Shown here one piece after another: positions 4,509-36,726 of a DNA stretch of 64,000 nucleotides (positions are counted from its first letter, which is position 1; every line of letters starts with the position of its first letter). The notes below the pieces were generated by a model. The model was not told the DNA's origin. It searched no databases and saw nothing but the letters and a program-made list of their open reading frames with translations. The position numbers and the translations under genes are program-made. The stretch comes from a virus, in the IMG/VR virus record IMGVR_UViG_3300046096_000525, positions 4,002 through 68,001 of that record; one strand, 5' to 3'.

Positions 4509-4539
4509 TTTGTAGTCTCATATATTATTTGTAACTTTG
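4509..4539 (+). promoter_or_regulatory. sigma-A-type promoter TTTG(4509-4512)-N19-TAACTTTG(4532-4539)
   Basis: Consensus match; 14 nt upstream of helicase ATG at 4554. Confidence 0.55.
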
Positions 4540-6982: not shown

Positions 6983-7444
6983 ATGTCAGTATTTAATTGG
7001 ATACATAATGGTCACGACATCAATAGTCTGCCAGATATGCAAAAACATTGCCCCAAAGTATGGGGCTTTGTTTACAAGCTAACGTTATATAAAAAAGGAA
7101 CACGAACTGTAGAGTTTGAGTACATTGGGAAAAAGAATGTGTACACAAAAAGGAAAAGAGTGTTTGGTAAAAAAGAAACAGCTGCCTTAAACGACAAAAG
7201 AAAAAAATCTTACGAGTACGTTATAAAGGAATCCGATTGGAAAAAGTATGTTTCTAGTAATAAGTTCATAAAAGCGAATAGTTCTCAGTTCGATATCTCA
7301 AGAGAGATTCTAACTTTTTGTACTAACGACTATGACTTAACATATCAAGAAGCAAAAGAGATTATTTGCTCCGGGGCCTTAGAAGATTGTAGGTTTTTGA
7401 ATGACGGAGTTTCGATTAGAAGATTTGGTAAAAAAATAATATAA
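6983..7444 (+). CDS. hypothetical protein; weak GIY-YIG-like motif (possible free-standing homing endonuclease between recA and phoH)
   Basis: WGFVYKLT...(15 aa)...EYIGKKNVYTKR resembles GIY-(x)n-YIG-(x)8-R; spacing longer than canonical, no conserved His seen. Confidence 0.4.
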   Translation: MSVFNWIHNGHDINSLPDMQKHCPKVWGFVYKLTLYKKGTRTVEFEYIGKKNVYTKRKRVFGKKETAALNDKRKKSYEYVIKESDWKKYVSSNKFIKANSSQFDISREILTFCTNDYDLTYQEAKEIICSGALEDCRFLNDGVSIRRFGKKII

Positions 7445-7448
7445 CACT

Positions 7449-8135
7449 ATGCAAACAGCAAGGGAAAAAAGAGTTCCAGTAAAACCAACGAGGGCTTTGA
7501 AGAATGATATTAAATACAAGATAACTCTTGACGAGGATCAAAAAAGAGTAAAAGAATCTATTTACAATAGCGAGCTTATAGTTATAACAGGCTATGCTGG
7601 ATCAGGTAAGTCTTTAGTAACAGCCCAGTCTGTATTAGACTTAATATTCAAAAAAGAAGTTACCCAAGTTTTTGTAACGAGAGCTGCAGTTGAGGTTGGT
7701 AAGTCCCTTGGATTTTTACCTGGAGAATTAGACTCAAAGTTTGATCCATACATAGAAGCCTTTAGAGATAACCTTTATAAGTGCTACGATAAGGATAAAG
7801 TAGATAAGCATATAAAGGATGGTCAAATACAAGGGTTACCTGTTCAGTACATTAGAGGTAAGACCATTGACCAAGGCCAAGTGCTTGTTGTAGAGGAAGC
7901 TCAGAACTTAACAAAGCACGAAATGCTAGCTATTTTAACCAGGCTAGGTAAGGGGGGTAAAATTATTATCAATGGAGATAATGAGCAGAGTGATATAAAA
8001 GAGAGTTATACCGGTTTACATTATGCTATAGACTTGTCAAAAGCTATTGCAGAAATAAGTTGGCACAAGCTTAAGTCTAACCACAGATCAGAGTTAATTT
8101 CAAAGATATTAAACTACGAACACAATAAAAAATAA
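7449..8135 (+). CDS. phoH: PhoH-like P-loop ATPase
   Basis: Walker A GYAGSGKS, Walker B-like VLVVEEAQNLT, overall PhoH-family layout. Confidence 0.8.
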   Translation: MQTAREKRVPVKPTRALKNDIKYKITLDEDQKRVKESIYNSELIVITGYAGSGKSLVTAQSVLDLIFKKEVTQVFVTRAAVEVGKSLGFLPGELDSKFDPYIEAFRDNLYKCYDKDKVDKHIKDGQIQGLPVQYIRGKTIDQGQVLVVEEAQNLTKHEMLAILTRLGKGGKIIINGDNEQSDIKESYTGLHYAIDLSKAIAEISWHKLKSNHRSELISKILNYEHNKK

Positions 8136-35504: not shown

Positions 35505-35589
35505 TAAAAGTATTTAAGATTCGAGGCTCAGTCAGTTGACTTGAGCACGCTACCTCGGACCTTGACAAGTGCCCCCACATGGGGGAAAT

Positions 35590-35746
35590 GATTGAGTGGC
35601 GGAATATGGCACTAGCTAAGGGTTTTACCGATAGCTAATGTCTTGGTAAACGCAAGGAGGGCAAAGAAGTTTGTACACAACTGCTGTGAGAGAGGATATT
35701 GCCTGTTGAACTCTCACATTTACAGGTTCGATCCCTGTCTCAATCA
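35590..35746 (+). ncRNA. tRNA-like element with 7-bp acceptor stem (GATTGAG/CTCAATC), canonical T-arm ACAGG-TTCGATC-CCTGT, but ~110-nt insertion containing several hairpins
   Basis: Read by eye; internal hairpins TAGCTA..TAGCTA, TCTTG-GTAAACG-CAAGG, GTGAGAG..CTCTCAC; too long for a canonical tRNA. Confidence 0.3.
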
Positions 35747-35783
35747 CGAAATGATTTGTTGATATATTATTGAAATTGAACAA

Positions 35784-35813
35784 GACGGGGCTTCGATGCC
35801 CCCACCTCCACAA
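35784..35813 (+). ncRNA. ssrA: putative tmRNA acceptor piece 3' module (T-arm GGGGC-TTCGAT-GCCCC + acceptor 3' strand CACCTCC + discriminator A)
   Basis: GACGGGGCTTCGATGCCCCCACCTCCA parallels the conserved tmRNA 3' end (E. coli GGACGGGGGTTCAACTCCCCCCAGCTCCACCA); true 5' boundary of the acceptor piece (P2 partner TTATTG ~35770) uncertain. Confidence 0.45.
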
Positions 35814-35880
35814 AAGTTTCCTTGAACTATAAACAAGGTGGTGGAGTCGCTGAGAAATCAGAGACCTAGGCTTTATCGGT

Positions 35881-35896
35881 TGTGCCTTAAACAGCC
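35881..35896 (+). repeat. 16-nt repeat TGTGCCTTAAACAGCC (copy 2; copy 1 at 14836-14851) inside the presumptive excised loop of the permuted tmRNA precursor
   Basis: Exact repeat. Confidence 0.6.
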
Positions 35897-35904
35897 GGTG
35901 TCAT

Positions 35905-36046
35905 GGGGGTGACAGGTATTGATTGGCAATAAGTAGGTAATAGGGAGAATTAATTTCAAAACTAAACGACAACGTTTACACACTTGGTGGGGTGCAAAAA
36001 AGATTTGCAGCCTAACACGCCTTAGGGGAGCGAAATCCCCTAAATT
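35905..36046 (+). ncRNA. ssrA: putative tmRNA coding piece: 5' acceptor strand GGGGGTG (pairs 7/7 with CACCTCC incl. G3-U70), tag reading frame 35944-36015 (GELISKLNDNVYTLGGVQKRFAA-stop), 3' hairpin GGGGA-GCGAAA-TCCCC
   Basis: 5' end GGGGGTGACAGGTATTGATTGG resembles tmRNA 5' GGGGCUGAUUCUGGAUUCG; tag frame opens right after a UAG, begins GE (as Bacteroidetes tags GENNYALAA) and ends AA; CAATAAG complementary to upstream TTATTG (P2-like). Confidence 0.45.
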
Positions 36047-36120
36047 GGACTTATAGCTCAGTTGGTTAGAGCAGTGCACTCATAATGCAAAGGTCGTATG
36101 TTCGAGTCATACTTGGTCCA
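36047..36120 (+). tRNA. tRNA-Met (or Ile2) with CAU anticodon, 74 nt, no encoded CCA
   Basis: Manual cloverleaf: acceptor GGACTTA/TTGGTCC (one T-T mismatch, one G-U), D-arm GCTC-AGTTGGTTA-GAGC, anticodon arm GTGCA-CTCATAA-TGCAA, T-arm GTATG-TTCGAGT-CATAC, discriminator A. Confidence 0.7.
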
Positions 36121-36267
36121 CTTAGCAAGGCATAAACGATAAGGAATACTCGTCACAGGTTTATGTTAAGTTGCAGACGGGCCGAAATGCTTACGGTTAA
36201 CGGGGCTAACTCATATAGTCCAGAGAGCAAAATCTAACGAGTGACTGATAGGAAAGACTATCAAAAT

Positions 36268-36370
36268 TGTCAGGTGGCGGAATTGGTAGACGCAGGAGTC
36301 CTCAAAACTCCCCGTAAGATGCAGCGAGAGCTTTGACCATCTCATACAGGTTCGAGACCTGTCCTGACAA
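36268..36370 (+). tRNA. tRNA-like gene (Leu-type D-arm TGGCGGAATTGGTAGACGC) with anticodon arm GGAGT-CCTCAAA-ACTCC (UCA at 34-36, C33) and 34-nt variable region; possible opal-suppressor-like or degenerate class II tRNA
   Basis: Acceptor TGTCAGG/CCTGACA perfect 7 bp, T-arm ACAGG-TTCGAGA-CCTGT, discriminator A; oversized variable region and C33 are atypical. Confidence 0.35.
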
Positions 36371-36548
36371 CAATGGTTATGAGCAACGTGCCCCAGAATT
36401 TCACAATGTTGACTGATGGAAAGACATCAAATGGAAGAGTAGCAGATAAGGTCGCCCCTGAACTGTGAGTGGGATTAATGATGACTTAATATTACTGCCC
36501 AATATACTAGGTAAAGCATGGTAAGTGATTAAGTATGTAGTTAACATC

Positions 36549-36573
36549 GAAGGTTCGATTCCTTCCTCTTTTA
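36549..36573 (+). other. tRNA 3'-end-like module (T-arm GAAGG-TTCGATT-CCTTC + CTCTTTT + A); possible partner GGAAGAG at 36433-36439 would give a 141-nt element
   Basis: Canonical T-loop; 5' half not confidently identified. Confidence 0.25.
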
Positions 36574-36615
36574 CTAAAGTTAAAAAAATTTTATTGAAAA
36601 AAAGATTTAACTAAT

Positions 36616-36646
36616 TTTGTTTTACAGAATTAATTTATTATCTTTG
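36616..36646 (+). promoter_or_regulatory. sigma-A-type promoter TTTG(36616-36619)-N19-TATCTTTG(36639-36646)
   Basis: Consensus match upstream of nrdB ATG 36727. Confidence 0.55.
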
Positions 36647-36726
36647 CACCTCAATAATAAGTATCTCTTTTAATTAGGGGGTACTTTTTTTTACCTTTAA
36701 TAATTAATAAAAACAAAAAAATCAAA

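Follow-up and report, generated by a model that had tools for sequence, protein, structure and literature searches.

Evidence for a circularly permuted gene for tmRNA in a phage with expression signals of Bacteroidota type

The DNA analysed in this work (the window) is a 64 000 nt stretch of a virus genome, positions 4002 to 68 001 of the IMG/VR record IMGVR_UViG_3300046096_000525. To judge from sequence comparison, positions 35747–36046 of the window (plus strand) are a circularly permuted gene for transfer-messenger RNA (tmRNA), in which the acceptor piece is located upstream of the coding piece. The assignment follows from three observations: the match to the Rfam family RF04321 exceeds the threshold, eight sequence variants carry compensatory changes in every helix, and the substitutions in the tag reading frame have a codon-like pattern. 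We consider it likely that the element is a functional permuted ssrA gene, carried by a phage of lytic type which, to go by its expression signals, would have its host among the Bacteroidota. The element is slightly larger than the segment first flagged, and is bounded by a tRNA-like element ending at 35746 and by a tRNA-Met gene starting at 36047.

Identification of the permuted gene

A first-pass annotation of the window had proposed a two-piece tmRNA on the basis of a conserved tmRNA 3′ end followed, further downstream, by a matching 5′ acceptor strand. Both elements are present: the 3′ end, GACGGGGCTTCGATGCCCCCACCTCCA, occupies positions 35784–35810, and GGGGGTG is found at 35905–35911, 94 nt further downstream. 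GGGGGTG pairs with CACCTCC (35803–35809) at all seven positions, among them the G3·U70 wobble, which is the identity pair for alanine. The order of the elements on the same strand is the 3′ end, the 5′ acceptor strand and then the tag (35968–36015), and the proposed permuted ssrA order, with the acceptor piece preceding the coding piece, was borne out by the RF04321 match, the homologues, the covariation and the substitution pattern of the tag. No T arm capable of pairing with GGGGGUG occurs 3′ of the tag, where the next element is the tRNA-Met with the acceptor strand UUGGUCC.

When the entire window was compared with all 4227 Rfam families, RF04321 (tmRNA_permuted) matched positions 35754–36015 of the plus strand with a score of 51.1 bits (gathering threshold 47 bits) and an E-value of 4.4e-7. 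In six relatives of the window gene (see below) the RF04321 score is 57–67 bits, and in one, L099, it is under the threshold. RF04321 is the sole permuted-tmRNA model of Rfam 15; it dates from 2025, was built from alpha, beta and cyano sequences, and describes the tRNA-like domain only (PMC11915505). A tRNA-like T arm that happens to lie beside unrelated sequence might also score over the threshold, and such a coincidence is conceivable in a region which is full of tRNA-like elements and in which ARAGORN produces spurious tmRNA calls at lowered thresholds. This explanation can be regarded as ruled out because of the E-value across the search, and it has to contend also with eight homologues that show compensatory changes in all six helices; we assign it practically no weight.

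The first-pass annotation had looked to the subtype models of permuted tmRNA for support. The support came from RF04321, whereas the window gene gave no full-length match to the alpha, beta or cyano models at gathering score. At a permissive threshold the only other tmRNA-type match in the window was a partial beta_tmRNA match covering the tRNA domain (25.6 bits, threshold 84 bits), and neither the alpha nor the cyano model was listed at E-values up to 10 in this search, which reports only the best of overlapping matches from the same clan. Two relatives, L101 and L103, reach the 50-bit threshold of alpha_tmRNA (50.8 bits), only across model positions 82–172. RF00023, the model of the standard one-piece tmRNA, had no match in the window. 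With ARAGORN, permuted tmRNAs were called in the homologous region of all three close relatives that were run (L001, L003 and L013); in L013 the program takes a downstream frame as the tag. Runs of ARAGORN with lowered thresholds on the window itself gave several overlapping spurious tmRNA calls in the surrounding RNA island and were unusable.

Homologues and covariation

Using the SPFH protein as query, 73 related IMG/VR loci were collected, and three of these contigs, L001, L003 and L013, align with the window across the whole tmRNA region at approximately 80% identity. A 27-mer from the spacer between the two pieces identified four further IMG/VR contigs and one metagenome contig, and a degenerate pattern derived from the coding piece detected the same seven IMG/VR contigs and no others. 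Together with the window there are thus nine sequences with the permuted gene, seven of the others being IMG/VR contigs and one a metagenome contig, and they represent eight distinct variants.

The eight variants were aligned by hand (alignment A3) with the spacer removed and indels padded, and the base pairs were counted. Standard pairs make up 96.3% of the pair cells (eight variants, 40 pairs). Changes on both sides of a pair were found in 12 of the 40 pairs; slid controls yielded at most one each, and none of 500 shuffles reached the observed value. Compensatory changes are present in all six helices. The acceptor stem is paired at 7/7 positions, its G3·U70 is invariant in the eight variants, and G5-C68 is replaced by A-U in L099. 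Four of the five T-stem pairs covary. Helices P2a, P2b and P2c, which add up to 20 bp, are 89–98% paired and each has compensatory changes. The hairpin GGGGA-GCGAAA-TCCCC that had been noticed at the end of the coding piece is there (36025–36040); in the slightly longer terminal hairpin of Table 1 three of eight pairs show compensatory changes and 96.9% of the cells are paired.

For helix P2 the first-pass annotation had suggested a pairing between CAAUAA and UUAUUG. These segments can pair (89.6%), but the pairing shows no covariation, while the nested P2a/P2b/P2c register covaries and agrees with the Rfam alignment; the CAAUAA/UUAUUG register was therefore set aside. A long-range pairing between 35748–35761 and 35967–35977, predicted by the minimum-free-energy fold, was rejected as well, the changes in L099 and L103 being uncompensated.

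Table 1. Features of the permuted tmRNA gene and of the flanking tRNA-type elements (window coordinates)
Feature	Position	Strand	Basis or remark
tRNA-like element, 157 nt; acceptor, T arm and extra arm, no normal anticodon arm	35590–35746	+	Sequence, fold
Acceptor piece, 64 nt, CCA not encoded	35747–35810	+	RF04321 alignment; covariation; 5′ end placed by the abutting tRNA-like element
P2 3′ strands	P2c 35752–35757; P2b 35765–35771; P2a 35775–35778 and 35781–35783	+	Rfam alignment, covariation
T stem; 6-nt T loop UUCGAU	35787–35791/35798–35802; 35792–35797	+	Rfam alignment
Acceptor 3′ strand CACCUCC; discriminator A	35803–35809; 35810	+	
Intervening spacer, 94 nt, presumably excised	35811–35904	+	Conservation, fold
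Spacer hairpin CCUUG-AACUAUAAA-CAAGG	35820–35838	+	
Spacer segment UGGUGGAG	35839–35846	+	Exact complement of the mature 3′ end CUCCACCA
Spacer hairpin CUGA-GAAA-UCAG	35850–35861	+	
Variable spacer hairpin	about 35867–35889	+	
Coding piece, 142 nt	35905–36046	+	Rfam alignment, covariation; 3′ end placed by the tRNA-Met 5′ end at 36047
Acceptor 5′ strand GGGGGUG; D-loop analogue	35905–35911; 35912–35922	+	
P2 5′ strands	35923–35925; 35927–35930; 35936–35942; 35947–35952	+	
15-nt linker ending UAAAC, between P2c and tag frame	35953–35967	+	
Tag frame GAC...GCA GCC UAA, predicted to encode DNVYTLGGVQKRFAA after the charged Ala	35968–36015	+	Resume codon, substitutions, ARAGORN in relatives
Terminal hairpin UUAGGGGA-GCGAAA-UCCCCUAA, helix-5-like, after the stop codon	36022–36043	+	Covariation
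tRNA-Met (CAU)	36047–36121	+	ARAGORN; Rfam tRNA 64.9 bits; same place in all relatives

The tag reading frame

The frame from 35944 to 36015, which follows a TAG and ends with GCA GCC TAA, is open, as had been described. The proposed start of the tag at 35944 (GGA) was rejected because positions 35944–35952 lie in P2c and vary only non-synonymously, and because the conserved feature is a G-initial codon after UAAAC. The eight extra codons that a start at 35944 would include (35944–35967) belong to P2c and to the linker. A start with the GAC at 35968, which would give (A)DNVYTLGGVQKRFAA, is the most likely one. In all eight variants the codon after (U/C)AAAC begins with G: it is GAC in most of them, GCU in L103 and GGA in L099. 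A G-initial codon matches known resume codons, UAAAC|GCN precedes the tag in other viral permuted tmRNAs, and ARAGORN selects the start equivalent to 35968 in L001 and L003.

The frame looks translated. Across the variants there are 82 synonymous and 87 non-synonymous codon differences in the tag frame; the corresponding counts are 26/157 and 27/119 when the sequence is read in either of the other frames. An in-frame deletion of 3 nt is present in the tag of L013 and L105. The frame is open in 8/8 variants, and the encoded peptides end with FAA, SAA, IAA or AVA. A hairpin inside the tag (35995–36007) covaries, which accounts for part of the amino acid variation.

The T arm

The T loop of the window gene, UUCGAU, is flanked by a regular stem, and the 24-mer that comprises the T arm and the acceptor strand occurs in identical form in 24 other IMG/VR contigs (L074–L097). 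Eight distinct permuted genes among these contigs, scanned with Rfam, score 78–122 bits with RF04321. The arm with the 6-nt loop is thus not a private defect of the window gene, as the same 24-mer is shared by other viral contigs whose permuted genes have such scores. The contigs with this arm (GGGGCUUCGAUGCCCC followed by CACCUCCA) span alpha-type and beta-type permuted tmRNAs and one standard tmRNA. In a set of 185 579 species genomes of bacteria and archaea the 24-mer was found in only two, metagenome-assembled genomes of Saccharibacteria and Pirellulales. From its distribution the arm looks like a mainly viral tmRNA variant. An attempt to trace its source lineage by the 24-mer was given up, no host lineage emerging from just two genomes.

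Within the phage group the T arm (35787–35802) is hypervariable: the window and contigs L001, L003, L099, L101–L103 and L105 have four variants of the stem and four of the loop, in a gene which is otherwise 80–95% identical. Patchy recombination or selection acting on the arm could be responsible.

Four of the contigs with the 24-mer (L078, L081, L086 and L093) continue directly with protein-coding sequence and have no 5′ half. They resemble the remnants, described in PMC9004378 and PMC11915505, of elements that insert into the 3′ end of ssrA and carry the T arm and acceptor strand as attachment site. That the window element is such a remnant is highly improbable: it possesses the 5′ acceptor strand, the P2 partners, the tag frame and the terminal hairpin, all of which covary with the 3′ fragment, and it is located in an RNA island of tRNA type in a phage with a replication module of lytic type and with no integrase among the ten larger window proteins searched.

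Points against the assignment and the decoy alternative

Several observations weigh against the interpretation as a functional permuted tmRNA. The RF04321 score of the window gene is just 4 bits over the threshold, and the ARAGORN check which had been foreseen for the window turned out negative: the default run reports the tRNA-Met only and misses the permuted gene. The hand alignment was made with the structure in mind and so favours it, though it agrees with the independent Rfam alignment. The T loop has 6 nt instead of the expected 7 (UUCRANN). Relatives have UUCGACU or UUCGAUU, or, in L101–L103, GGCAGAG, a loop far from the consensus which is accompanied by the loss of GG in the D-loop analogue. 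CCA is not encoded, contrary to the first-pass annotation, since A-CAA follows the acceptor strand; it is not encoded in the tRNA-Met of this phage nor in any tmRNA gene of the phage group either. In the minimum-free-energy fold of the precursor one helix competes with the acceptor stem (see below). A further hairpin, AAACG-NNNN-CGUUU (35964–35977), with an invariant stem and a variable loop, could instead form over the proposed resume codon, and the exact start of the tag is inferred and cannot be fixed from the sequence alone.

A further structural deviation concerns the pseudoknots. There is no room for pseudoknot PK1, which is absent because only 15 nt (35953–35967) separate P2c from the resume codon; the Rfam alignment deletes 16 consensus positions here. 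PK1 is outside the RF04321 model and its absence does not bar membership, yet it is a real difference from typical tmRNAs. The stop codon is followed by a single hairpin and then by the tRNA-Met; hence there are no downstream pseudoknots.

The missing PK1, the T loop cut to 6 nt, the GGCAGAG loop of L101–L103 with the matching loss of GG, and a window Rfam score that is low compared with the 78–122 bits of other viral permuted tmRNAs would suit a different function, namely a tRNA-like decoy or a degenerating tmRNA that is made, and perhaps charged or bound by SmpB, without tagging, and that acts as a competitor or inhibitor of the host tmRNA. The tmRNA-like gene of mycobacteriophage DS6A, which has no coding sequence, is a precedent (PMC11915505). 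A decoy would, however, need neither a tag that is open in 8/8 variants, with an excess of synonymous changes, an in-frame deletion and an end in ...AA or ...VA, nor a resume codon starting with G. We judge the decoy unlikely and favour the functional permuted tmRNA.

The spacer

Conservation in the spacer exceeds that of the tmRNA itself. The 33 nt from 35816 to 35848 are identical in 8/8 variants and the segment 35816–35869 is nearly so, in a gene with an overall identity of about 80%; the first 55 nt of the spacer are nearly identical in all variants. In the minimum-free-energy fold of the precursor CUCCAC (35806–35811) pairs with GUGGAG (35841–35846), whereas the centroid fold uses the acceptor stem. 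L099 has a second GGUGG element within an extra insert.

In sister phages and in Cellulophaga phage phi40:1 the tag of the one-piece tmRNA is directly followed by a similar hairpin and UGGUGGA(G/U). In local alignments of the spacer to one-piece genes, z was 5.9 for L008 and 3.8 for L004; the similarity was not significant in an nhmmer search with a spacer profile (E = 0.84). If the hairpin/UGGUGGA elements are homologous, then simple circular permutation of the sister gene would not yield the order of the parts found here (3′ domain, element, 5′ domain, tag). One may speculate that the spacer is a functional RNA element, with the CCA-bearing 3′ terminus of tmRNA or of tRNA-Ala as its pairing partner, in a two-piece gene of in-lineage origin, but we regard this combination as doubtful.

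Relationship to the one-piece tmRNA genes of sister phages

Eight sister contigs (L004, L005, L006, L008, L009, L012, L014 and L015) have a standard one-piece tmRNA, which occupies the same locus in those where the SPFH gene lies upstream. RF00023 scores 48–86 bits in L004, L008, L009, L012 and L014. The one-piece tmRNAs of L005 (about 2400–2775), L006 (about 7400–7799) and L015 (about 7300–7674) were found with a profile of the acceptor piece and are not reported by default ARAGORN. The isolate phi40:1 also has a one-piece tmRNA (RF00023, 87.6 bits). Genes for tmRNA have been noted in flavobacterial phages such as Calle, their form not being stated (PMC8776804), and in Bacteroidota 24 380 standard and 48 permuted tmRNA instances are on record (PMC11915505, Supplementary Table 2).

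The sister phages belong to the same phage group: the SPFH proteins are 80–90% identical and the tmRNA locus is likewise downstream of the SPFH gene. The one-piece genes of the sisters and of phi40:1 do not encode CCA either. In L004 and L012 the 5′ end of the one-piece gene (GGGGGUGACUGGUUUUGACAG) is identical to that of the permuted genes of L003, L013 and L105, the identity with L003 covering the first 21 nt; the 5′ end of the window gene differs, reading ...GACAGGUAUUGA... there (GGGGGUGACAGGUAUUGA). One-piece genes have a similar P2 3′ strand, and the acceptor-piece profile gives them 29–37 bits (37 in L012, 34 in L008); on alpha and beta permuted genes it gives 20–29 bits, so that the one-piece sisters are above most of these. 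They also have a hairpin and UGGUGGA(G/U) element, which in them lies inside the RNA after the tag and in the window within the spacer between the pieces. The one-piece genes differ from the window gene in matching standard RF00023 (48–88 bits), in having PK1, and in their long, homologous tags of QIEANM type with 22–29 residues.

Beyond the tRNA-like end, the coding piece has no significant similarity to one-piece or to alpha/beta permuted genes. Global identities and local alignments with shuffles were tried as a means of establishing ancestry and do not separate the sister one-piece genes from the alpha/beta permuted genes as source; only the spacer (z 3.8–5.9) and the acceptor-piece profile lean to the sister one-piece genes. 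For the permuted gene an origin in situ and a mosaic produced by recombination are both conceivable. That it arose, or was rebuilt by recombination, within flavobacterial-type phages from their own one-piece tmRNA, with a functional spacer, is a tentative proposal which we think rather unlikely to hold as a whole, this estimate applying jointly to the in-lineage origin from a one-piece tmRNA, the minimal pseudoknot-free product and the functional spacer.

Comparison with known two-piece tmRNAs

The first-pass annotation has to be qualified in that two-piece tmRNAs carried by phages had already been published. Melnitz and the pelagimyophages have them, and of the 133 unique phage tmRNAs known in 2022 a total of 53 were classed as two-piece, almost exclusively from aquatic phages (PMC9004378). 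The permuted tmRNAs of aquatic phages (OM43 phage Melnitz, pelagimyophages, L074–L097; RF01849 and RF01850 types) resemble the window gene in the order acceptor piece, spacer, coding piece, in the G3·U70 acceptor stem, in UAAAC before the resume codon and in tags of the form (A)ND.. or (A)D.. that end in AA. Those of L074–L097 have, in addition, exactly the same 24 nt of T arm and acceptor strand.

Genes of the L074–L097 type differ from the window gene in that they match the alpha or beta model in full (66–135 bits) and have kept PK1 and a downstream pseudoknot. The alpha- and beta-type viral genes encode CCA in all cases examined, have GCN resume codons and are located behind promoters of sigma-70 type (TTGACA/TATAAT). 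The window gene, by contrast, matches no subtype in full, has no PK1, no encoded CCA and a probable GAC resume codon, and is located in a phage whose promoters are of Bacteroidota type. The sequences of the window gene and of the alpha/beta viral genes are not significantly similar outside the tRNA-like ends (z at most 2.5). What appears to be new is that a phage group with signals of Bacteroidota type has the permuted form, that this form occurs alongside the one-piece genes of sister phages, and that its architecture is minimal and outside the alpha, beta and cyano subtypes.

The two-piece tmRNA of Caulobacter crescentus is bacterial and chromosomal, has pseudoknots and encodes CCA, unlike the window gene. 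It provides the mechanistic model, in which tRNA-processing enzymes cut one precursor into two base-paired pieces (Keiler, Shapiro & Williams 2000, as cited in PMC9004378).

Phage context and host signals

Proteins encoded in the window include a helicase, GroEL, exonucleases, both subunits of ribonucleotide reductase, a DnaB-like helicase and PolA (PHROG, Pfam). Among 50 697 deposited phage genomes no close relative of the window was found; a BLAST search of the locus against these records matched the tRNA-Met only, and the tmRNA alone had no match at E-values up to 1. A tblastn search with an E. coli SmpB sequence, a weak test limited to the 64 kb of the window, found no SmpB gene.

Promoters with TTG at −33 and TAnnTTTG at −7, together with the absence of Shine-Dalgarno sites, are characteristic of Bacteroidota. 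TAnnTTTG occurs 125 times in the window (88 ± 8 expected), with a peak in the region 30–45 nt before start codons. The motif occupies the peak position in 17 genes, 15 of which also have TTG at about −33. The promoter architecture is aaaaaGyTTGCA, a gap of approximately 19 nt and TAnnTTTG, 20–45 nt upstream of start codons; the 17 sites include those at 4532, 5967, 28392, 32425, 39458, 50371 and 54006. Shine-Dalgarno-like motifs precede only 4 of 101 open reading frames, which is below the 12% background. The window shares GroEL, exonucleases and PolA (39% identity) with phi40:1, a cultured flavobacterial phage of the genus Callevirus. The Bacteroidetes phage context claimed by the first-pass annotation was well supported by the 17 promoters, the scarcity of Shine-Dalgarno motifs and the genes common with phi40:1.

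The RNA island

The tmRNA gene is part of a 1.2-kb non-coding island of structured RNAs (about 35505–36726), located between the SPFH/Band-7 gene and nrdB. No promoter motif of Bacteroidota type was detected immediately upstream of the island, the nearest one being upstream of the SPFH gene. The island opens with a leader element (35509–35589) that has two covarying hairpins; the same leader is found directly 5′ of the one-piece tmRNA in sister phages (L012, 7366–7443; L008, 7161–7187), and may be a shared promoter or processing module. In the tRNA-like element that follows (35590–35746) the acceptor stem, GAUUGAG/CUCAAUC, and the extra arm are each 7 bp long, the T arm is normal, and the D stem is interrupted by a hairpin insertion. 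The element has no recognisable 7-nt anticodon loop, and neither ARAGORN nor the Rfam tRNA model calls it. In relatives, too, the acceptor piece of the tmRNA is immediately preceded by the 3′ end of a tRNA or tRNA-like element.

Downstream of the tRNA-Met, a segment of about 137 nt (36122–36258) is over 90% conserved in L001, L013, L103 and L105 and shows paired-looking substitutions. It matches no Rfam family, and ARAGORN at low stringency mistakes part of it for a tmRNA tag; it is likely to be another structured RNA. The next element (36270–36370), present in the window only, resembles a class-II tRNA; its D arm is of leucine type and its variable arm is long. With CCUCAAA as anticodon loop, the anticodon would be UCA with C33. 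Copies of a direct repeat, GACTGAT(A)GGAAAGAC(T)ATCAAA, lie on both sides of the element at 36241–36263 and 36410–36430. L103 has a different insert at this site, so tRNA-like modules appear to be inserted here as cassettes. A third, oversized tRNA-like element (36425–36568), for which standard tools give no call, combines the acceptor strands GGAAGAG/CUCUUUU and the T arm GAAGG-UUCGAUU-CCUUC with some 70 nt of inserted sequence in its interior. Conservation of the ends of this element extends to L001, L013 and L103. Near the end of the island there is a terminator-like hairpin with a T run (36659–36695).

Discussion

The arrangement of the elements suggests how the RNA might be produced. The island is probably transcribed as one precursor, as no Bacteroidota-type promoter directly precedes it. 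The acceptor piece would acquire its 5′ end, at about 35747, through 3′ processing of the tRNA-like element that precedes it. Its other end would be made by an endonuclease of RNase Z type cutting after the discriminator A35810, and the CCA-adding enzyme of the host would supply CCA. RNase P would cut before G35905 and before the tRNA-Met (36047). The predicted products are the 64-nt acceptor piece and the 142-nt coding piece, the 94-nt spacer being discarded, and the two pieces would be held together by the 7-bp acceptor stem and about 20 bp of P2. The alanyl-tRNA synthetase (AlaRS) of the host would charge the RNA via G3·U70, and its delivery to stalled ribosomes would be the task of the SmpB and EF-Tu of the host. 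With the GAC at 35968 as resume codon, (A)DNVYTLGGVQKRFAA would be added, with release at the UAA at 36013–36015. A plausible benefit to the phage is extra ribosome-rescue capacity, or a tag of its own choosing, during infection.

Two-piece tmRNA is the textbook case of RNA gene permutation, with occurrences in three bacterial lineages, in organelles and in aquatic phages. Here a single phage group has both forms at the same locus, with eight one-piece sister contigs and nine two-piece sequences, and such closely related 'before and after' genes bear on how a permuted RNA gene arises and which of its parts are dispensable. Should the origin within the lineage prove true, two-piece tmRNA would have originated independently once more, in a phylum context that is otherwise one-piece, and the resulting tmRNA, about 206 nt long, would be minimal and free of pseudoknots. 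A functional spacer would mean that the hairpin and UGGUGGAG were retained from the one-piece ancestor and control processing or charging. Counts of phage tmRNAs obtained with ARAGORN only are underestimates, because the default run missed the window gene and three one-piece sister genes.

The gene is predicted to specify a natural minimal tmRNA that has neither PK1 nor downstream pseudoknots, contains a T loop of 6 nt and receives its CCA post-transcriptionally. In a Bacteroidota host, with a one-piece tmRNA of its own, such a permuted tmRNA would have to function together with the SmpB, AlaRS and proteases found there. It would thus be a useful test of the true requirements of trans-translation, and of why phages bring their own tmRNA and tag.

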